Assembly (NCBI GenBank): GCA_026329315.1
Contig: GCA_026329315.1_4342.1
Source of the DNA: a phage
Direction: 5' to 3' (one strand)
Length of the DNA: 43,897 nt
Positions within the stretch are counted from its first letter, which is position 1; each line of letters starts with the position of its first letter. Below, one piece after another: positions 6,879 to 15,488 of this stretch. Made by a program: the position numbers and the translations under genes. Under the pieces are notes generated by a model. It saw nothing but the letters and a program-made list of their open reading frames with translations, did no database searches and was not told where the DNA came from.

Positions 6879-7390
6879 GTGGTCAACAGGCCGCGTAATA
6901 ACGGTATCTCTTTAGGTGTCATCAGTATACCAGTGCTTCGTTGGTTCAGCATAGGTGTACCGACATCTGCGGAGAACTCGCCCTTCTCCTGATTAATGGC
7001 CTGTAACTCGTACACGACAGGGCCGTCAGCCGGGTAAGACAGGTCAGTGCTGACGTAACGGCGGAATATGAACTTCGGTAACTCGGTATTACTCATCGGG
7101 ATTTTATCCATCTCATCATCCAGTTGATTGAGAATATCCGGCAGAGTGAATGTTGTCGTCTGGTCCATATCACTGTTGTTAGCCGCCCCCGACGCCTCCA
7201 TCGGGGTAGGTTCGAATGTGATAGTTTCGCCTGTCTCCAGTGTTGCCGTAAGTTCCTGTAGCCCGCGCACAAGTAAATACCGCTTCGAAAGAAGCGGATG
7301 CACTATCTCCAGCGTCGTGTAGTCAATCTCGCCGTCGGGGTTTGAGGCCAGCTTACGGCGGTAGGCTGCTTCTACTGATTCCTGACTCAT
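6875..7390 (-). CDS. minor tail protein (lambda L-like)
   Basis: Position between tape-measure-proximal gene and K-like gene; ATGA overlap. Confidence 0.4.
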   Translation of the reverse strand: MSQESVEAAYRRKLASNPDGEIDYTTLEIVHPLLSKRYLLVRGLQELTATLETGETITFEPTPMEASGAANNSDMDQTTTFTLPDILNQLDDEMDKIPMSNTELPKFIFRRYVSTDLSYPADGPVVYELQAINQEKGEFSADVGTPMLNQRSTGILMTPKEIPLLRGLLTT

Positions 7391-7393
7391 AAG

Positions 7394-8182
7394 TTAACCG
7401 CCCACATTAAAATCAATACGAGTGATGTATTTACTGCCCCACGCAGAATCAGCCTGTGGGATGGCGGCGTAATCTCCAATCGCTGGAATGTTTACCACAG
7501 TGCCGTCAGAATAGGTAATGTCGATGCTTGTTGCGCCGTTCATTGCTACTTTTGCCGATGCCGCCGGGCGGGCTGATGGCACAAGATTGCCGTTTCGGTT
7601 GATGTGGTATACCTGTGGCCCCTCATAAACAATGCGGCTATCCAGCGCGGACGCCAGAAGGTTAATTGGCGGGTATCCCGCGGGCCCTTCATTACTCCAG
7701 ATGCGTGGGAACGTAGTCTCGTAGTTCGCATATATTTTCAGGAAACTGCCCAGGCAATCACCATAACAGCCATACAAATCCGGAAGATTGTTAATCAGGC
7801 ATTGGTTCTCAAGGTCCTGGAACGGCGATTTCTCGGCGGTTGCCGTGAAGGTAATTGTCCAGTTAATCCCGTCTTCGGTGGACTCCGCTATAGTGGACGT
7901 GATGGTTACCTGATAATCCTCAATACCCATGCCGAAGTCGTGCGCCATCCAGAAACTTGACGCGCCACCATCGACTTTCTCGAGGAACGACAGAAACGCC
8001 TGTCGCCCCATTGCGGATGTAATCAGGGTTACGCTAACAGGGAACACGTCGTAATACGTGTCACGGCCCTGACGCACCCCGCCACCGGCTAAATCTACAC
8101 TCCAGACGTTGTTACGTCTGGTCATTGAGTAGCCTTTTGATACCACCGGCTTAAGGCTACGTGGAAAGTATAAGTCGCTCAT
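7394..8182 (-). CDS. minor / distal tail protein
   Basis: Immediately downstream of tape measure gene; start overlaps tape-measure stop. Confidence 0.4.
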   Translation of the reverse strand: MSDLYFPRSLKPVVSKGYSMTRRNNVWSVDLAGGGVRQGRDTYYDVFPVSVTLITSAMGRQAFLSFLEKVDGGASSFWMAHDFGMGIEDYQVTITSTIAESTEDGINWTITFTATAEKSPFQDLENQCLINNLPDLYGCYGDCLGSFLKIYANYETTFPRIWSNEGPAGYPPINLLASALDSRIVYEGPQVYHINRNGNLVPSARPAASAKVAMNGATSIDITYSDGTVVNIPAIGDYAAIPQADSAWGSKYITRIDFNVGG

Positions 8183-10521
8183 TATTTAAACCCCGGCGCG
8201 TTTCTTGTGGCCTTGCGGGCCTTGCTAATCTTACTGTTGCTGTTCTGCAAAGATGCAGCAACTTGCTCTTCTATGATGATACGCAGACGGCCTTCATCAT
8301 CCTGCTCGGTGGATACGTTGCCAATCTGACTCGATGTATTATTTACAATGGTAACATTAGATGGGCCGGAAGAAGACCCGTTTTGCCCCATAATTTCTTT
8401 CATCTGCTGCGCGGTGCGCACACGCGATGCGCCAGCGGGCATGATAACTTCGGGTTTACCGCGTTCAGCGATGGTGGAAGCCTGCCCGGCGGATAACTGT
8501 CCACCCTGTTCACGTGCTGACCTGATAGCGGAAATCTGCGCCATACCTGCCCCGACGGCAGCGGCAGCGGCTACAGGGGCCAGGAACGGGCCAACAACAG
8601 GGATAGCAGCCGTTGACTTGTACGCCTCGATAGCTGCGGTGTACGTGGCTATAGTGGCCTGTACGATAGCGAATGCCTTGTACGCACCAGAAGCCTCGCC
8701 CAACGCAGACCCGATGTTTGAAGCCATGTTACCGAAAGCTGTTGCCGTTGCGTCGGCACGCTTGGTTGCGTACTGCTCGTTGATGGCGTTAAGCGCGGCC
8801 TGATACTGCTTCTCGCTAATCAGACCTTGTTCCCGGTACTTATCGGCTACCGCCAGTTTCTGCTGTTCCTGAATATCCAGAAGCTCAAGCTCGGTGGCGT
8901 TCTGGCCCATAATCTGAGCCATGAAATCATCACCTTTCTGCTGCTTCTCCTGGGCTTCTTTCCTTTTCTTGTCCAGTTCTTCCTGGCGGGCCTGTTCGGC
9001 AGAGAGCATAATCTGCGTCTTGGCGTTTTCGTACTGTTGGTCGCTAAGAAGCTTATTGCTATAAAAATCCTGCAACTTAGACAGTTGCTCTTCCTGGTTA
9101 GCTTCTATTTTCTGAAATACGTCATCATTAAGATGGATTGACTGATAGTAGAAGTCTTCCGCCGCCTTTTTCTGGCGCTCGAACGCGTCCGCTGCTTTCT
9201 TAGCGGCTTTTGCGGCTGACCCGTCATCGTCAGAACCGCCGCCGGTTCCGGTTACCTTAAATTTGTTTAACCCCTCAGCTTTTGCGGACTCCTTATCGAT
9301 GTCATACGCCGCGCGTTTTAACGCTACAATATCCTGTTGAGCTTCTACCTGTTCGCGGAAACTTTTACGCGTAACGTCGGCGACATCGCGCTGGGTATCC
9401 AAAGCCATGCCAAGCTGGAAGTTGATATTTTTAGCTACGTCTACTGATTCCCCGGGGGTAAAAGCGGCGCGTACAAGACGGCCAGCGTCCTGAGCACCTT
9501 TAACGATATCTTCAAAAAATCTCTCCATCGCGGTGAACTCTTCCGCGATGAAGTCAAGAGCATCGGCGGCGGATTCAGCGATGGTGGTGGCCGTTTGTTC
9601 TCCGCTATCGGTAATACTCTTGCTGCTGAAATCCCACAGTTCATTAAGCCCGTTGATGGCATCACCAACAAAGCCAAACGCAGCGTCGAATGACATCTCG
9701 ATAGCGCTTCCTACTTCCGACGCTATGTCGCCCCACATCTGCATTTCAGCGGCTAATTCACCGGAAGCAACAGACGCGTTTAATTCCTGGATCAAGTCAT
9801 CGATATACCTGATAGGTTCCGCAAGTGCGCCAACATCAAGACTGGTGGCAAGCGTCATTTTTAGCTGCGACCATGAGTCACTGGCGCTCGCGATAGCGCC
9901 ATTAAGGGTGTTGGCTTGGTCCGCCATGGCACCGGCAAAATTTACGTTACCAATATTAAGTAAATACTGCTCAATATCGGCAGCGCTTTTCTTAACTACG
10001 GTTGTTGTCCCCTGGAATGTAAACTCTACGTCGTTTTTGTTCTGCTTGGCTTTGATGCCGAATTCTTTTAGGCGTTCGAACTCAAACGTACTGGCGTCGG
10101 CTACCGCCTCAATCATCTGATTAAGGTCCTTGCCCATAGCCGATGCGGTATTGCCGTAGGACCGCAACGCCTCCTCGGATGGGGTAAGGCCAAGGGCCAC
10201 CAGCTTACGGAAGCCTTCCACCGCCTGCTCCAGTCCGTATGGGGTATCGCGGGCAAAATCTTGCAGGATACTTAGCGCCTGTTTAGCACCTTGGGTACTT
10301 CCTGTTAAGGTCTTCAAACTGGCGGACATCTTGTCCAGTTGCCGCTGTGAGTCAACCAGTTCTTGGGCAGCTTTATACGCGGTAGCCGCTACGATAGAAG
10401 CAAGGCCTGCTACGGCGGCCCCCGCTACTTTTGCGGACTTTGAAAGGTTGTCAAGACGGTCTGATGTGGCTTTCGCGCCTTGCTCTGTTACTTTTACTAC
10501 TAAACTAGCTACATCAGCCAT
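8182..10521 (-). CDS. tail tape measure protein
   Basis: 779 aa, coiled-coil-rich A/E/Q/K composition, follows chaperone pair. Confidence 0.8.
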   Translation of the reverse strand: MADVASLVVKVTEQGAKATSDRLDNLSKSAKVAGAAVAGLASIVAATAYKAAQELVDSQRQLDKMSASLKTLTGSTQGAKQALSILQDFARDTPYGLEQAVEGFRKLVALGLTPSEEALRSYGNTASAMGKDLNQMIEAVADASTFEFERLKEFGIKAKQNKNDVEFTFQGTTTVVKKSAADIEQYLLNIGNVNFAGAMADQANTLNGAIASASDSWSQLKMTLATSLDVGALAEPIRYIDDLIQELNASVASGELAAEMQMWGDIASEVGSAIEMSFDAAFGFVGDAINGLNELWDFSSKSITDSGEQTATTIAESAADALDFIAEEFTAMERFFEDIVKGAQDAGRLVRAAFTPGESVDVAKNINFQLGMALDTQRDVADVTRKSFREQVEAQQDIVALKRAAYDIDKESAKAEGLNKFKVTGTGGGSDDDGSAAKAAKKAADAFERQKKAAEDFYYQSIHLNDDVFQKIEANQEEQLSKLQDFYSNKLLSDQQYENAKTQIMLSAEQARQEELDKKRKEAQEKQQKGDDFMAQIMGQNATELELLDIQEQQKLAVADKYREQGLISEKQYQAALNAINEQYATKRADATATAFGNMASNIGSALGEASGAYKAFAIVQATIATYTAAIEAYKSTAAIPVVGPFLAPVAAAAAVGAGMAQISAIRSAREQGGQLSAGQASTIAERGKPEVIMPAGASRVRTAQQMKEIMGQNGSSSGPSNVTIVNNTSSQIGNVSTEQDDEGRLRIIIEEQVAASLQNSNSKISKARKATRNAPGFK

Positions 10522-10888
10522 CGTTTCTACCCTCGAAAATAGCGTCTAAGCTCATGATGATGTCGGATTCGAACATCCCTATATTCTGGCCTGAAACGGT
10601 GCTGTACGCCACTAAATCTGACCATCGTAATTGCTCGCGCGGGTACATCTTGATGCCGTCGTCGTCCACTCGGCGGGTGAATTTAATTTCCCTGTACTTC
10701 TCAAATGTGGTTAGTAGCTCAGGGGGGCATTCCGGCCCAGCGGCCTGCGTTGCATCCGGCGCGTCTTGCATAACCCCCATAGCAATTAGCGCGGCTTTAT
10801 GCCCATCGGCGATACTGTCAAATTCCCGCCGTTTGTGGCGGGTTATGAAGTTCCAACGGGCGAACTGGAGCAACGCGTCTACTTTTCC
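10514..10888 (-). CDS. T segment of tail assembly chaperone G-T (expressed by -1 frameshift from G)
   Basis: Open -1 frame overlapping 3' end of G with no ATG of its own; candidate slip site GGAAAAG at 10882-10888. Confidence 0.45.
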   Translation of the reverse strand, partial: GKVDALLQFARWNFITRHKRREFDSIADGHKAALIAMGVMQDAPDATQAAGPECPPELLTTFEKYREIKFTRRVDDDGIKMYPREQLRWSDLVAYSTVSGQNIGMFESDIIMSLDAIFEGRNDG

Positions 10889-11295
10889 TGTAGCTGGTGC
10901 AGTTGTTCGTTATGAAACACAACAACAAGTTCCGCGAGTCGTTTATATTGCGTCAGGAGTGTGTTCAGATTCTCTTTATTGAATTCGTCGTCAAGGCTCC
11001 ACCCGTTAACCAATTCAATCGCTAACTGACGGTTAAGGTCCGTCGCCGCGTCTTCCATCTTCAGGTTGTATTCAGAGAAATCTTTCATCTCTTCGCACTT
11101 ATCACGAAGCGGTTTTAATTTCCCTAATACTGCCCGGTATGCAAGGGTGAACGCGCGCATAGCCTTAACGGCAACGTCCGCCTCAGGAGAAACAACATTA
11201 AGCCATTCCCCGGAATCAGTACCGTCTTTTAGCGGTATCGGCATACGTGCGCCCTTTTCGGCTTCCGCTTCGTAATAAAAATCAGAAAGTTTCAT
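10879..11295 (-). CDS. tail assembly chaperone (G)
   Basis: 138 aa acidic protein directly upstream of tape measure; ATG with AAAGGA RBS. Confidence 0.55.
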   Translation of the reverse strand: MKLSDFYYEAEAEKGARMPIPLKDGTDSGEWLNVVSPEADVAVKAMRAFTLAYRAVLGKLKPLRDKCEEMKDFSEYNLKMEDAATDLNRQLAIELVNGWSLDDEFNKENLNTLLTQYKRLAELVVVFHNEQLHQLQEK

Positions 11296-11402
11296 TCTTT
11301 AATCCTTTGGTTAAGAGGTTACTGGTTAAAGGAAATGCGCCAGACGGGAACCACCCGCTTTTCGTGTGCGACACTAGGCGCAAAATTATTCTAGCACACT
11401 AC

Positions 11403-11431
11403 TTGCACACCCCAATATAATAGCGTACTAT
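11403..11431 (+). promoter_or_regulatory. sigma70-like promoter TTGCAC-N17-TACTAT with embedded palindrome ATAGCGTACTAT
   Basis: Member of conserved class-2 motif TTGCACACCCCAATATAATAG-N-GTACTATTCA; 42 nt upstream of cassette start. Confidence 0.5.
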
Positions 11432-11473
11432 TCACTTACACCAACGATGTTATCTCAAATCAGGAGTTATGTT

Positions 11474-11665
11474 ATGACCGGTATCACTATGTTCTTCTTA
11501 ATTATTTTTGTAGCCGTTTATTTTATCCCGTTTTTGGTGGCACATATGCGTAACCATAAAGCAAAGCTGGCGATATTCATGGCTAACTTATTTCTCGGGT
11601 GGATTCTGTTGCCGTGGGTATTCATTTTAATCTGGGCTTGCAACTCGAACGTGAAAGAGAAGTAG
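11474..11665 (+). CDS. small two-TM membrane protein, superinfection-immunity (Imm)-like
   Basis: AGGAG RBS; two hydrophobic helices; motif NLFLGWILLPWVFILIWA. Confidence 0.45.
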   Translation: MTGITMFFLIIFVAVYFIPFLVAHMRNHKAKLAIFMANLFLGWILLPWVFILIWACNSNVKEK

Positions 11666-11703
11666 GCTACTATAAGACAAATCCTAAACACGAGGAAGTA
11701 AGC

Positions 11704-12834
11704 ATGGCCCAGAAGAAAATAACCGACGAGCAATTACAGGAAGAATTGAACGCCGGGATGAAGAATATCGATATCGCCCGTAAATACGGAATCTCAGACC
11801 GCGTTATCCGAATCCGTAAAGCGAAGCTGGCTAAGAAAGGCGTAGGCCACGGGCGCGACGTTAGTCACCTTGTACCAGACGGTTACAAGATTAAAGGAAC
11901 GTCGTCCCTGGTGGACGAGTTCGGCAACACTAAGTTGCAATGGGTTAAGACCGACGCTGATGCCGAACGTCAGGTTGAATTGATGAAAGCCGTAATAGAG
12001 GGCATGAAGTCAGAGATTACGCCCGTTGCGCCTGTTAAACCGGCACGAGCCAAACGTGACGATAAACTACTCAATCTTTACACGGTATCTGATTTCCATC
12101 TCGGTATGTTAGCCTGGGCTGACGAGAGCGGCGACGACTGGGATATGAAAATCGCGGAGGACTTATTCTCTCGTTGGTTTGATGCTGCGTTTCAGAAAGC
12201 ACCGGATGCAGGTACGGGGGTTATTAATCTTCTTGGCGACTTAGCTCACTTCGATAGTCTTGACGCCGTTACACCGGCGAGTGGTCATGTCCTTGACGCC
12301 GACACGCGTTACCAGAAACTTGTCCGCTACATGATTCGCATGGTCCGCCGTGTTGTTGATATGGCTCTGGTTAAGCATAAAACTGTTCGCTTGCTTATAG
12401 TTCAGGGGAACCACGACGAATCCGGGATGATTTGGCTGGCGGAGATGTTCAGTACGCTGTACGACAATGAGCCGCGCGTGTTCGTCGATACGTCGCCGGA
12501 TGTTTACAAGATGGTGCAACACGGCAAAACGACGCTGTTCTTCCATCACGGGCATAAAGCACGATTCGACGCTATCGAACCGGTTATGATTGCCAAGTTC
12601 CGTAAAGCGTTCGGCGAGAGTGTTTACAGCTACGCCCACGTAGGCCATCTGCACCACCAGAAGATTGTAGAAAGCCGTAACATGATTGTTGAGCAACACC
12701 GCACCTTAGCGGCTAAAGACGCCTACGCCTCTCGCGGCGGATGGATGTCGGGCTGCAGTGCAAATGTAATTACTTATAGCGCCGAATATGGCGAGGTCGC
12801 ACGTTTAACTATTTCACCGGAGATGCTGGGATGA
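11704..12834 (+). CDS. HTH-fused calcineurin-like metallophosphoesterase
   Basis: N-terminal HTH (NIDIARKYGISDRVIRIRKAKL); phosphoesterase motifs SDFHLG, GDLAHFD, QGNHDESG, HHGH, GHLHH. Confidence 0.65.
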   Translation: MAQKKITDEQLQEELNAGMKNIDIARKYGISDRVIRIRKAKLAKKGVGHGRDVSHLVPDGYKIKGTSSLVDEFGNTKLQWVKTDADAERQVELMKAVIEGMKSEITPVAPVKPARAKRDDKLLNLYTVSDFHLGMLAWADESGDDWDMKIAEDLFSRWFDAAFQKAPDAGTGVINLLGDLAHFDSLDAVTPASGHVLDADTRYQKLVRYMIRMVRRVVDMALVKHKTVRLLIVQGNHDESGMIWLAEMFSTLYDNEPRVFVDTSPDVYKMVQHGKTTLFFHHGHKARFDAIEPVMIAKFRKAFGESVYSYAHVGHLHHQKIVESRNMIVEQHRTLAAKDAYASRGGWMSGCSANVITYSAEYGEVARLTISPEMLG

Positions 12835-13319
12835 AAGATATTGTAATTTTCGATTTAGACGGGACATTGGCCGACGGTACCCATCGCTTACACCTGTTAC
12901 CAAAAGATAACTACGGAGAAACGTGGGCGTGGAAGCCATTTAACATGGCCTGCAAAGATGACGCTCCGATATACGACAATATCCATTTGTGTAGCGTACT
13001 GTGGCATTCCGGACTTACTATAATTATCCTTACCGGGCGAAGTGATGACGCTGAGGAGGAGACTCGCGAATGGTTACGAGAGAATAACGTTAGGTTTGAC
13101 ACGCTAATCATGCGCAGCAAACACGACAACAGAAAAGACATCGTAATTAAAGAAGAGGTGTTGCGTGCTTTCGGACTGGAAAGAATCTTGTGTGCGTTCG
13201 ACGACTCTCCAGCGGTAATAAAGCATTTCCGTGACCTCGGCATAACCGCACACGCAGTTACCGAATACGACTGTAACGGGAACTCTACACACTTAAAACC
13301 ACACGGGAGCGATAAATAA
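12831..13319 (+). CDS. HAD-superfamily phosphatase (polynucleotide 3'-phosphatase / nucleotidase-like)
   Basis: DLDGTL motif at N-terminus, ILTGR and FDDS motifs; ATGA overlap with upstream gene. Confidence 0.6.
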   Translation: MKDIVIFDLDGTLADGTHRLHLLPKDNYGETWAWKPFNMACKDDAPIYDNIHLCSVLWHSGLTIIILTGRSDDAEEETREWLRENNVRFDTLIMRSKHDNRKDIVIKEEVLRAFGLERILCAFDDSPAVIKHFRDLGITAHAVTEYDCNGNSTHLKPHGSDK

Positions 13320-13874
13320 TGGCTAAGGTAATTATTCTTAATGGCCCTGCGGGTTGCGGGAAAGACACGCTTGCTATGGCGCTGGTAGAAATGGGCTTTG
13401 CGAAAGGAACTACCAGTTTCAAGAATCCAATGTTCAATATTGCTTTGGCAGCGTTAGGCCAGGATGCTTACCACGAATTTCTCGACGGCTACGACGACCG
13501 GGCGCGGAAAGAAAAACCCGAGGGTTTTTCTTAATGGGTTGTCCCGCCGCCGGTTAATGATTGCCATTTCTGAGCAATTCATTAAACCGGTATTCGGCGA
13601 TGATTATTTCGGTAAGTATCTTGCTGAAAACTTGCCTGACGGCGACGAAGTTTTTGTAGTGTCCGATGGTGGATTCGCCAGTGAAGTTGCCCCTATCGTC
13701 GCCGCGGGGCATGACGTGCGAATCGTCCGCCTCCATCGTGACGGCTATACGTTCATCTGCGATAGCCGTGGCTATCTGTACGATGTTAGTGGTGTAAAAG
13801 ATTACGACACCTACATCATACCGGGTGACGTTAAATCGAACGTTATAGACATTGCTTTAAAATTAGGTTTGTAA
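13319..13874 (+). CDS. deoxynucleoside monophosphate kinase (T4 gp1-like), interrupted by a +1 frame change at T5 run 13525-13529
   Basis: P-loop GPAGCGKDT in frame A (13319-13534); RRLM and kinase C-terminal region in frame B (to 13874). Confidence 0.55.
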
Positions 13875-13880
13875 GAAAAA

Positions 13881-13910
13881 GGCCCCGAAAGGGGCCTTAG
13901 TTTTATGCGT
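13881..13910. terminator. bidirectional rho-independent terminator (GGCCCC-GAAA-GGGGCC)
   Basis: Same stem as the 1785 and 21132 terminators; A-run upstream, TTAGTTTTAT downstream; between convergent genes. Confidence 0.65.
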
Positions 13911-15069
13911 AGGTGATACGTTGAATTACGATAGACGACTGGTACTGATTGCCGGTAGCCTGGCCTTCAATGGACTGAGTGATTGACTCAGGCCCACCAA
14001 TCTCAGGTGTAACCGCCGTAAGCTCTGCACGTTTCAAACTGAAAGACATAGCCCCGTTTACCCCTGCCAGAATAGAGTTAATCTCTACCTGCTGCTCGTT
14101 GATAAACTTCTGAATCATCGCCATGTCGTACAGCTTGCCAGAGATAGAGAATGTGTTAGCTGCGCGTCCACGTTCGACGAACGCCACGCTACTGTTACCG
14201 AGTTCGAACTGCGCGGAAGCTCCGTTGTCGTTGGTGATGGTGAGAGTATCGCAACGCAACGGCGTGGAGCCATCGAACACCGACACATCTACCGACGAGA
14301 ACGGCTCATCGGTGAACGTAACCTGAGAGAAATCAGAGCCAGACGGCGGCGCGGTAAGAATCTCCTGACTCCGGCCGATGAACGGGAAGCTGCCGGTGAC
14401 CATGGCGTTAACCGCCTGCTCTACGGTAAAGCCAGAGATTTCCACACCTTTGGTCAGCATGTACGCGTCCGGGTTACCACACTGGCCCTTGAACCACGTC
14501 AGGATGGAGAACGTCTTACACGCGTTACCGGTTTCCAGCTTGTCGCCAGTTTTTGCGTCAGTGGTTACTGTCTCTGCTGTCAGCGTGTGCTGAATACCTG
14601 CGCCCGTAACTACCAGAGCGGAAACCGCGGTCACGATAAACGGTTTTGCGTTGTCGCCGGTTAAGTCGGTGAACGCAATAAGGTCGCCAACTTCTACACC
14701 GTCAGTAATGAAGCTACCGGCAGCGCGGGTGAATGTTTTACCTGCTGGAGCGACCGTAATTTCGGCACCCGTAATCTCTACCCCATCCTGCCACGTAGAC
14801 GTCATCGCGCCAGCAAGGAAATCATCCTGACTACGGGAGCTAAGTTCGATGGCATACTCCCCGCTAACCTGCTTGTTACCGGTTCGGATGGATGTAGTTT
14901 CACGGCTGCCGTCCAGTTCGTTGGAAGTCAGTGCATCGCGGGTTACAGCGGGAACGCCGCCCGTGTTACGCAACGGCGACCATACCGGGTTAGTCGGTGT
15001 TACGCCAGGGGTAGTTTCCGCCACATAGAATTGCGCGGTATTCGCGCCCTTAAAAGGAGTTGTAGCCAT
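13903..15069 (-). CDS. major tail protein
   Basis: Large structural ORF preceding chaperone/tape-measure block; ATG at 15069 with AAGAGG RBS. Confidence 0.5.
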   Translation of the reverse strand: MATTPFKGANTAQFYVAETTPGVTPTNPVWSPLRNTGGVPAVTRDALTSNELDGSRETTSIRTGNKQVSGEYAIELSSRSQDDFLAGAMTSTWQDGVEITGAEITVAPAGKTFTRAAGSFITDGVEVGDLIAFTDLTGDNAKPFIVTAVSALVVTGAGIQHTLTAETVTTDAKTGDKLETGNACKTFSILTWFKGQCGNPDAYMLTKGVEISGFTVEQAVNAMVTGSFPFIGRSQEILTAPPSGSDFSQVTFTDEPFSSVDVSVFDGSTPLRCDTLTITNDNGASAQFELGNSSVAFVERGRAANTFSISGKLYDMAMIQKFINEQQVEINSILAGVNGAMSFSLKRAELTAVTPEIGGPESITQSIEGQATGNQYQSSIVIQRITYA

Positions 15070-15071
15070 AT

Positions 15072-15488
15072 TCACAGCCTCTTGGTGAATGCAATAAAGT
15101 TAATTGACAATGGTCGTTTGGCCCATCCGTTTTCTACAATCAGCGGCCCCAGGCTAACCGATTGAACCTCGGCGCAGATGTCGTTACGCGAAAATGCCTT
15201 ACCTGATTTAAACGCCGTGTTAAGTAAGTCTGCCATTTTATTGATTGGCGCGCTACCTTTCACCGATGCGTAGTTAATGTCTATCTGATAGACACCGGCG
15301 CGTTGTTCCGTGAAGAATAAGTCAGCCTGCTCGGTATCCGCCAGCAACATGTAACTTGCCAGATACGGCGTATCTGTTGACGTCGGCGCGTCGATGTTTT
15401 CAAGCGCTACCTTGATGCCGTTGGTGGTTCCGAAGGCTACCAGCGGCACATCAAACGCTTTTGTTAAGTCCTCAAAGTAGCCCATCAT
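15072..15488 (-). CDS. tail completion / neck protein (hypothetical structural)
   Basis: Tightly packed, overlapping stop/start in head-tail joining region. Confidence 0.35.
   Translation of the reverse strand: MMGYFEDLTKAFDVPLVAFGTTNGIKVALENIDAPTSTDTPYLASYMLLADTEQADLFFTEQRAGVYQIDINYASVKGSAPINKMADLLNTAFKSGKAFSRNDICAEVQSVSLGPLIVENGWAKRPLSINFIAFTKRL

Follow-up and report, generated by a model that had tools for sequence, protein, structure and literature searches.

A Kagunavirus cassette of a phosphoesterase, a phosphatase and a nucleotide kinase in the accessory-gene slot of the Guernseyvirinae tail region

Four plus-strand genes (11474-13874) sit between minus-strand tail genes in a stretch of phage DNA of 43,897 nt (GenBank assembly GCA_026329315.1, contig GCA_026329315.1_4342.1), here called the window. 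This raises the question why such a block lies within a tail operon, and what its three enzymes, a metallophosphoesterase with a helix-turn-helix (HTH) region, a HAD phosphatase and a deoxynucleoside monophosphate (dNMP) kinase, may do together. The explanation that we prefer, and which we regard as evenly balanced between right and wrong, is that the cassette represents the Kagunavirus version of an accessory slot of the Guernseyvirinae and that the trio would form a module for DNA breakdown and control of the dNMP pool, like A1, Dmp and Dnk of phage T5. The cassette consists of the following features:

11474-11665, plus strand: gene of an Imm-like small membrane protein, 63 aa (PF14373, E 1.3e-13; phrog_1039, E 1.8e-23)
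11704-12834, plus strand: gene of the HTH-metallophosphoesterase, 376 aa (phrog_704 over the full length, E 1e-166)
12831-13319, plus strand: gene of the stand-alone HAD phosphatase, 162 aa (PF25109 HAD_PNKP, E 3.3e-20; phrog_415, E 3e-64)
13319-13534, plus strand: 5' part of the dNMP kinase gene, with the P-loop GPAGCGKDT and a premature stop after 71 codons
13525-13529, plus strand: frameshift site, a run of five T where relatives have four (single-base gap against phage SHAK7858)
13530-13874, plus strand: 3' part of the dNMP kinase gene in the +1 frame, with RRLM, SDGGF and VRLHR motifs

The arrangement of four plus-strand genes between minus-strand tail genes, described earlier in a sequence-only reading of the window, is confirmed by the list of open reading frames (ORFs) and by Pfam and PHROG matches. 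Positions 10500-15100 are 98.2% identical to Escherichia phage SHAK7858 and 86-97% identical to many Kagunavirus phages (K1G, K1H, K1ind, Golestan and others), with matches in 433 phage records in total; by sequence, the window is a member of Kagunavirus. The cassette is real and well delimited; dozens of public Kagunavirus genomes already have it annotated, and the window therefore adds little by itself. The nearest annotated genome, the 98%-identical relative, is that of a small lytic siphophage encoding a polymerase, a helicase-primase, an exonuclease, an annealing protein and a resolvase; its gene table lists no ligase and no other nucleotide-metabolism genes, and its cassette runs in the same direction as its replication genes. 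The three enzymes appear to be translationally coupled, judging from two overlaps of a stop with a start codon (12831-12834 and 13319).

A block on the strand opposite to the tail genes had been taken as the unusual placement of a self-contained moron. The comparison of gene order in related phages does not bear this out. Our survey comprised 88 loci carrying the phosphoesterase family, collected by a search seeded with a 7-sequence alignment. In every Guernseyvirinae locus examined, the interval from the tail assembly chaperone to the tail tube gene contained an opposite-strand block with the HTH-phosphoesterase, so that the slot is a constant of the subfamily as a whole. Between the phosphoesterase gene and the terminator, the cargo varied from 262 to 2323 bp. 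For example, many Kagunaviruses have the HAD and kinase genes at this position, SETP7 has one small ORF, and vB_SenS-Ent2 carries genes for an HNH endonuclease, a hypothetical protein and an Ant/Rha-type protein. As the slot is conserved across the Guernseyvirinae and its cargo variable, the layout is not unusual; it is a conserved accessory-gene hotspot and no oddity of this genome. In 15 of the 88 loci the HAD-kinase pair directly follows the phosphoesterase in a fixed order, and in all 88 the two genes are either both present or both missing. The pair is absent from three loci (L010, L017 and L018) despite phosphoesterases that are 93-98% identical.

The first position of the cassette is usually occupied by the Imm-like gene. 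In the window, its product reached 51 bits against PF14373 (cut-off 27.9) with 42 of 42 model positions covered, the gene has an AGGAG ribosome-binding site 8 nt upstream, and judged from its sequence the protein probably excludes superinfecting phages. K1H-type Kagunaviruses encode a 108-aa protein with an N-terminal signal peptide instead (K1H locus L015, 5609-5935), and the first position thus swaps between different envelope proteins.

Some further observations concern the cargo of the slot. HNH endonuclease genes were found immediately 3' of the phosphoesterase gene in T1 (L002, 6207-6689), a Jerseyvirus (L003, 5171-5671) and a Vibrio phage (L004, 5241-5750); they may be homing endonucleases targeting the conserved phosphoesterase locus. 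In a Jerseyvirus-like IMG/VR contig (2597490042, Salmonella phage; locus L039), a full-length match to the RNAI of ColE1-type plasmids (RF00106, 96 bits, 7249-7351) sits in the variable cargo slot just 3' of the phosphoesterase gene, suggesting that the hotspot has taken up DNA from a plasmid.

Of the three enzymes, the kinase has an ortholog with known activity. The frame-repaired kinase matched phrog_139 (E 3e-44), and a profile built from 74 sequences gave T4 dNMP kinase (1DEK) as its top match in the PDB (E 9e-5). The catalytic lysine of the P-loop is K15, and G14, K15 and T17 are invariant in the 74 relatives. The protein is 49% identical over 172 residues to the DNK of phage Rao1 (R1DNK; E 5e-59), in which the P-loop lysine K15 recurs, as do the SDGGF and VRLHR motifs. 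By fold and profile, we predict a dNMP kinase of the gp1/R1DNK type and not a polynucleotide kinase. The relationship to T4 gp1 (PDB 1DEK/1DEL) is distant although the fold is the same: the Pfam DNMK model PF21448 matched only one of the 74 relatives, and the D-T-R motif of gp1 is replaced by S-D-G-G-F. T4 gp1 is specific for hmdCMP, dGMP and dTMP, whereas the Rao1 ortholog takes all four dNMPs. R1DNK phosphorylates dAMP, dGMP, dCMP and dTMP with K15 as the catalytic residue, raises dADP in vivo and contributes to dATP levels (10.1101/2024.12.20.629578). It also triggers the Kongming defence, and escaper phages carry mutations in dnk; deletion of dnk in Rao1 has no measurable fitness cost (10.1101/2024.12.20.629578).

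The sequence-only reading had recognized a P-loop kinase by its GKDT and RRLM segments, which the T4 gp1 fold supports, but it missed that the gene is not one open frame. Its span is 555 nt in 52 of 52 related phage records, versus 556 nt here, and a 71-aa truncated kinase is on record from one contig only (Logan assembly ERR10438666). Within the locus set the gene is intact in 16 of 19 copies, and the split ones are those of the window, of the Logan contig, presumably its source, and of Klebsiella phage K2alpha62. The extra T may be a genuine mutation that inactivates the gene, or else an error of the assembly; unless it is the latter, the +1 frameshift that it causes means that the kinase step is lost here. 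A programmed frameshift was considered and rejected: all 52 relatives have four T and an open frame, the run is too short for transcriptional slippage, and the slippery UUU is followed by a sense codon instead of a stop.

As to other phages, dnk of Klebsiella phage vB_Kpn_K2alpha62 (Webervirus; L007, 5164-5735) is independently split across two frames. Its ortholog in phage VAC2 is intact and triggers Kongming.

The HTH-metallophosphoesterase most likely starts at ATG 11704, behind a GAGGAAG ribosome-binding site, rather than at the upstream GTG. It consists of a LuxR/GerE-like HTH (residues 8-44), a beta-hairpin with a helix (61-104) and the phosphoesterase domain (119-376). Its earlier identification as a metallophosphoesterase with an HTH stands on phrog_704, on nine invariant columns and on the predicted fold, whereas the Pfam matches remained below the curated cut-offs (PF00149, 18.7 bits versus 21.5; PF12850, 21.7 versus 27). 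The nine columns, invariant in 89 sequences and including metal-ligand motif residues, are D130, H132, G178, D179, N236, H237, H282, G314 and H317. A predicted structure (pLDDT 92.7) consists of an N-terminal three-helix HTH with weak resemblance to GerE/LuxR, the beta-hairpin with helix, and a phosphoesterase fold nearest to the nucleases PolD-DP1, SbcD and Mre11. Sequence identity to Mre11, SbcD and archaeal PolD DP1 is only 12-16%, however, and unlike these enzymes the phage protein lacks a capping domain and has an N-terminal HTH and beta-hairpin module of its own; neither a Rad50/SbcC-type partner nor a family-D polymerase is listed in the gene table of the 98%-identical relative. Sequence and profile searches of the PDB with the phosphoesterase gave nothing significant, and a fold search of BFVD returned only uncharacterised phage homologues. 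On the predicted structure, a nuclease is a reasonable reading, and public annotations call the protein 'DNA repair exonuclease' or 'proof-reading exonuclease'.

The fusion of an HTH to a phosphoesterase had seemed unusual as well. The family, however, comprises 4595 clusters at 50% identity in a search of representatives, mostly of 370-400 aa, with homologues in 2050 phage records including T1, Tls, Dhillonvirus, Webervirus and Vibrio and Rhizobium phages. In the Jerseyvirus Ent2 the protein is a mosaic (L003, 4001-5155): the first ~100 residues, with the HTH and the beta-hairpin, are near-identical to the Kagunavirus protein and the catalytic domain is much more diverged, which implies a recombination junction inside the gene.

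For the HAD phosphatase, the assignment made from its DxDGT motif is upheld by 73.1 bits against PF25109 (cut-off 27.6), with DLDGT at residues 8-12. Its PDB matches, 4xrp, 5uj0 and 1ltq, include Pnkp1 (4xrp) and T4 PNK, and its motifs LTGRSD, HDNRKD and AFDDSP align with VSGRE, GDARKD and AIDDR of a T4-like PseT. The TGR, RKD..KEE and DD motifs are found in PseT, and DLDGT..HR in both PseT and the Dmps. The core motifs DxDGT, (T/S)GR, RKD..KEE and DD also occur in the phosphatase domain of T4 PseT and in Pnkp1 of the Pnkp1-Rnl-Hen1 system, but in contrast to these the window HAD stands alone, without a fused PNK-type kinase and without a ligase partner. No association with a polynucleotide 5'-kinase, fused or adjacent, was found, the adjacent kinase being of the gp1 type; public records nevertheless label the HAD 'polynucleotide kinase'. 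T5 Dmp belongs to the same PHROG (phrog_415, E 3.6e-57), and its direct alignment with the window HAD covers only the N-terminal 48 residues (E 5e-4). A homologue with 44% identity lies directly after nrdA-nrdB in a T4-like Krischvirus, and the same phage has a match at a second place in its genome, suggesting a nucleotide-level role distinct from that of PseT.

Is the trio a unit, or are these genes neighbors by chance? Phage Rao1, which is T1-like, encodes orthologs of all three enzymes in the same order (gp56, gp57 and gp58, with 45%, 50% and 49% identity), and the order phosphoesterase-HAD-kinase was also found in Webervirus and in two metagenomic lineages. The setting in Rao1 differs from that in the window. 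Its trio lies in an early/lysis-proximal region on the strand of its neighbors and not inside the tail operon, its genes are separated by gaps of 50-78 nt instead of overlapping, no Imm gene precedes them, and the kinase gene is intact where that of the window is frameshifted. The experimental study of Rao1 covers the kinase only. In ECBP5-like podophages, the trio is located between exonuclease/endonuclease genes and an ATP-dependent DNA ligase gene (PF01068/PF14743). In the Melnykvirinae, podophages as well, a different metallophosphoesterase (PF00149 above cut-off) takes the first position, behind genes for an exonuclease and an endonuclease VII, and it gave no profile match to the window phosphoesterase family; it is followed by HAD and kinase in LAh2 and by the kinase alone in Yersinia phage phiR8-01. 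An unrelated phosphoesterase at the same position speaks for a functional coupling of these genes and against an adjacency by chance.

The same three enzyme classes are known from T5, whose A1 is a host-DNA-degrading metallophosphatase, Dmp a HAD-type dNMP phosphatase with DLDGT, and Dnk a dNMP kinase. Host DNA degradation requires A1, a predicted metallophosphatase, and A1 suffices for it (10.64898/2026.04.02.716235), and the mycobacteriophage metallophosphoesterase Gp48 disrupts host DNA (PMC12287305). The T5 genes are scattered, A1 and dmp being pre-early and dnk located elsewhere, whereas those of the window are adjacent; moreover, in the kinase family T5 Dnk falls on another branch, and A1, with 556 aa, matches phrog_1745 only, in contrast to phrog_704 for the window phosphoesterase. 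Homology to A1 was tried and rejected: hhalign comparisons with the single A1 sequence and then with a 42-sequence A1 profile gave no match in the phosphoesterase domain, and only the N-terminal HTH region of the phosphoesterase family was aligned to the profile, with a probability of 22%.

Metagenomic relatives of T5 A1 (P0463, P0465-P0467, P0469, P0493 and P0505), of ~530 aa, carry N-terminal HTH Pfam domains. T5 pairs A1 with a separate DNA-binding protein, A2, and the HTH-bearing relatives parallel the architecture of the window HTH-phosphoesterase.

According to our proposal, the cassette would be transcribed against the tail operon and along the direction of the replication genes, from its own weak sigma-70-type promoter to a terminator common with the tail tube gene. 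The first product, the Imm-like membrane protein, would probably exclude superinfecting phages. The HTH-metallophosphoesterase would bind DNA and act as a nuclease that releases nucleotides, the kinase would convert the four 5'-dNMPs to dNDPs, as shown for the 49%-identical ortholog, and host Ndk would then produce dNTPs. The HAD phosphatase would trim the same pool and may dephosphorylate dNMPs or modified dNMPs like Dmp; alternatively, it may remove 3'-phosphates that block exonucleolytic digestion. In this scheme the kinase step is predicted by orthology, and the nuclease step and the phosphatase substrate are those we infer. A host-DNA degradation and salvage module of nuclease, nucleotidase and dNMP kinase had been one of two functions put forward in the sequence-only reading; in outline it is now the better supported of the two, by the nuclease-like fold and by the common phrog_415 of HAD and T5 Dmp.

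Several observations weigh against such a module. There is no specific profile link between the phosphoesterase family and T5 A1. The phosphoesterase occurs without the HAD-kinase pair in T1, Dhillonvirus, most Jerseyvirus and Vibrio phages and, being alone in most lineages, does not need the other two enzymes. With the clade profile, the HAD is closer to the 3'-phosphatase domain of T4 PNKP than to the Dmps (36 bits for the phosphatase domain of a T4-like PseT, 14-21 bits for three Dmps). Although Rao1 encodes the HAD ortholog gp57, it accumulates dAMP and stays Kongming-sensitive, which argues against a strong Dmp-like activity of the HAD. Finally, the lack of the HAD-kinase pair in the three loci mentioned above and the cost-free dnk deletion in Rao1 indicate that the module is dispensable.

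Three other explanations have to be weighed against the breakdown and dNMP-pool module. In one, which we consider improbable on balance, the cassette is an anti-defence module in which the HAD, and perhaps the phosphoesterase, mainly removes nucleotide alarm molecules arising from host-DNA degradation or from the phage dNMP kinase, such as dAMP, the precursor of the Kongming dITP signal, or m6dAMP, which is sensed by Metis/PUA-Cal-HAD. The kinase would then be a liability guarded by the phosphatase, and loss of the kinase an alternative escape route. This would suit the triggering of Kongming by phage DNKs and the dnk mutations of escapers, as well as the findings that the HAD enzyme T5 Dmp depletes dAMP and thereby counters Kongming and that Dmps co-occur with DNKs (10.1101/2024.12.20.629578); the HAD enzyme MisB of Metis dephosphorylates m6dAMP (10.1101/2025.11.05.686725). 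The membership of the window HAD and T5 Dmp in one PHROG, the joint presence or absence of HAD and kinase in 88/88 loci and the independent dnk frameshifts in the window and in K2alpha62 fit as well. However, Rao1 remains Kongming-sensitive with its HAD ortholog gp57 and needs T5 Dmp in trans for protection, the HAD profile is nearer to PNKP 3'-phosphatases than to Dmps, phiR8-01 has a phosphoesterase and a kinase but no HAD gene, and a PADLOC run on the four cassette proteins gave no matches. A search of NCBIfam yielded none above its cut-offs.

Rather unlikely, too, is a role of the phosphoesterase as an exonuclease that serves replication or recombination of the phage's own DNA, with DP1-like proofreading or Mre11/SbcD-like end processing; it would act independently of the HAD-kinase pair, their adjacency arising only from the clustering of DNA-metabolism genes. 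The best structural matches (the PolD DP1 proofreading exonuclease, SbcD and Mre11), the solitary phosphoesterase of most lineages, the public exonuclease labels and the podophage trio inside a replication module, beside exonuclease, endonuclease VII and ligase genes, all agree with this. The fixed order of the HAD-kinase pair directly behind the phosphoesterase in 15/88 loci and the unrelated phosphoesterase of the Melnykvirinae at the same position do not, and the gene table of the nearest relative has no Rad50/SbcC-type partner or family-D polymerase; an exonuclease, an annealing protein and a resolvase are in it already. The other function put forward in the sequence-only reading was nucleic-acid end-healing, in which the phosphoesterase would open 2',3'-cyclic phosphates, the HAD remove 3'-phosphates and the kinase phosphorylate 5'-OH ends, thereby repairing tRNA or RNA cut by defence nucleases. 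We regard it as very unlikely. The HAD is indeed a member of the PNKP phosphatase family with PDB matches to the RNA-repair enzyme Pnkp1 and to T4 PNK, it bears the public label 'polynucleotide kinase', and an ATP-dependent ligase gene follows the trio in ECBP5-like phages. That ligase is a DNA ligase, though, the nearest Kagunavirus genome lists no ligase at all, and the kinase is of the gp1 type and not a PNK-type 5'-kinase, which leaves the HAD as the only PNKP-like member. Since E. coli RtcB joins 3'-phosphate or cyclic-phosphate ends directly to 5'-OH ends, this host enzyme would be ill served by healed ends. The nuclease-like phosphoesterase disfavours end-healing as well.

The signals and genes around the cassette are:

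11403-11431, plus strand: candidate cassette promoter TTGCAC-17 nt-TACTAT, weak (7/12 consensus matches)
13879-13898, both strands: bidirectional intrinsic terminator hairpin AAGGCCCC-GAAA-GGGGCCTT, called on both strands by the scan
13903-15075, minus strand: tail tube gene, flanking and convergent with the cassette
11388-11396, minus strand: possible extended -10 element TGCTAGAAT, read from the sequence and not called by the scan
11320-11384, minus strand: int-alpA RNA motif (Rfam RF02996), full model matched by cmscan with 36.6 bits (gathering score 35.8)
10879-11295, minus strand: tail assembly chaperone gene (TAC_4, 138 aa)
10514-10873, minus strand: second ORF of the tail assembly chaperone (TAC_18, 119 aa)
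8182-10521, minus strand: tape measure gene, flanking

The cassette's own promoter at 11403-11431, postulated before, was not called by our consensus scan. It gains from conservation, since its hexamers and their spacing are kept as TTGCAy-N17-TAyTAT in 17 aligned sequences of two genera, Kagunavirus and Jerseyvirus; in the alignment of these genera, a perfect TATAAT at 11416-11421 is not conserved. The bidirectional terminator at the end of the cassette, which had also been proposed, was found again as a hairpin with a stem of 8 bp (6 GC pairs), common to the cassette and the convergent tail tube gene. It is kept in 26 of 26 Guernseyvirinae loci whatever their cargo, with the loops GAAA, TTTC, AAAC, GGAA, TTCC and GTAA; that these loops are variable and even inverted argues for selection on the structure.

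Cassette and chaperone gene diverge from an intergenic region that holds the int-alpA motif, between the cassette promoter and the chaperone start codon and 25 nt upstream of the latter. The score of the motif exceeds the gathering threshold by a narrow margin, and near-identical copies in other loci fall just below it. The three-stem structure is preserved in 11 sequences from Kagunavirus and Jerseyvirus, with two compensatory pairs between the genera. Here the motif could be the leader of the chaperone/tape-measure mRNA or a small RNA, and the putative extended -10 element TGCTAGAAT could possibly start a transcript with the motif at its 5' end, followed by the chaperone and tape measure genes. 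A Kagunavirus transcriptome paper groups the Imm gene with the polymerase genes and not with the tail genes (PMC12645636); its time classes are too coarse, and we did not use them.

The TAC_4 and TAC_18 ORFs are consecutive (10514-11295, minus strand) and precede the tape measure gene; the annotation of the relative calls only a shorter second one. Four antisense or intergenic ORFs (12241-12699, 12911-13243 and 11518-11733 on the minus strand, 11247-11420 on the plus strand) gave zero PHROG matches and are for this reason taken as non-coding. In GenBank, the taxonomy line of SHAK7858 reads Autographiviridae/Kayfunavirus and its name is vB_EcoM (record headers OR594183, KJ749827). This label looks wrong, since the genome has a tape measure gene and is that of a Kagunavirus-like siphophage.

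A metallophosphoesterase, a PNKP-type HAD and a dNMP kinase thus travel together, in the same order, in at least five phage lineages, with the kinase alone being characterised. The database labels that these genes commonly bear, 'polynucleotide kinase' and 'DNA repair exonuclease', are best taken as unverified. This chemistry is watched by two recently described defence systems, with Kongming sensing the phage dNMP kinase and Metis sensing dNMPs from degraded host DNA. It is tempting, although we think it a long shot, to see the trio as a portable module in which the phosphoesterase shreds host DNA, the kinase salvages the dNMPs and the HAD removes alarm mononucleotides (dAMP for Kongming, m6dAMP for Metis/PUA-Cal-HAD). 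If this were true, the dnk frameshifts in the window phage and in K2alpha62 would be natural escapes from kinase-triggered immunity, and the deletions of the whole HAD-kinase pair in close relatives another form of the same escape. With two defence systems directed at this chemistry, experiments on host-DNA recycling and immune evasion could reasonably start from the phosphoesterase and the phosphatase.

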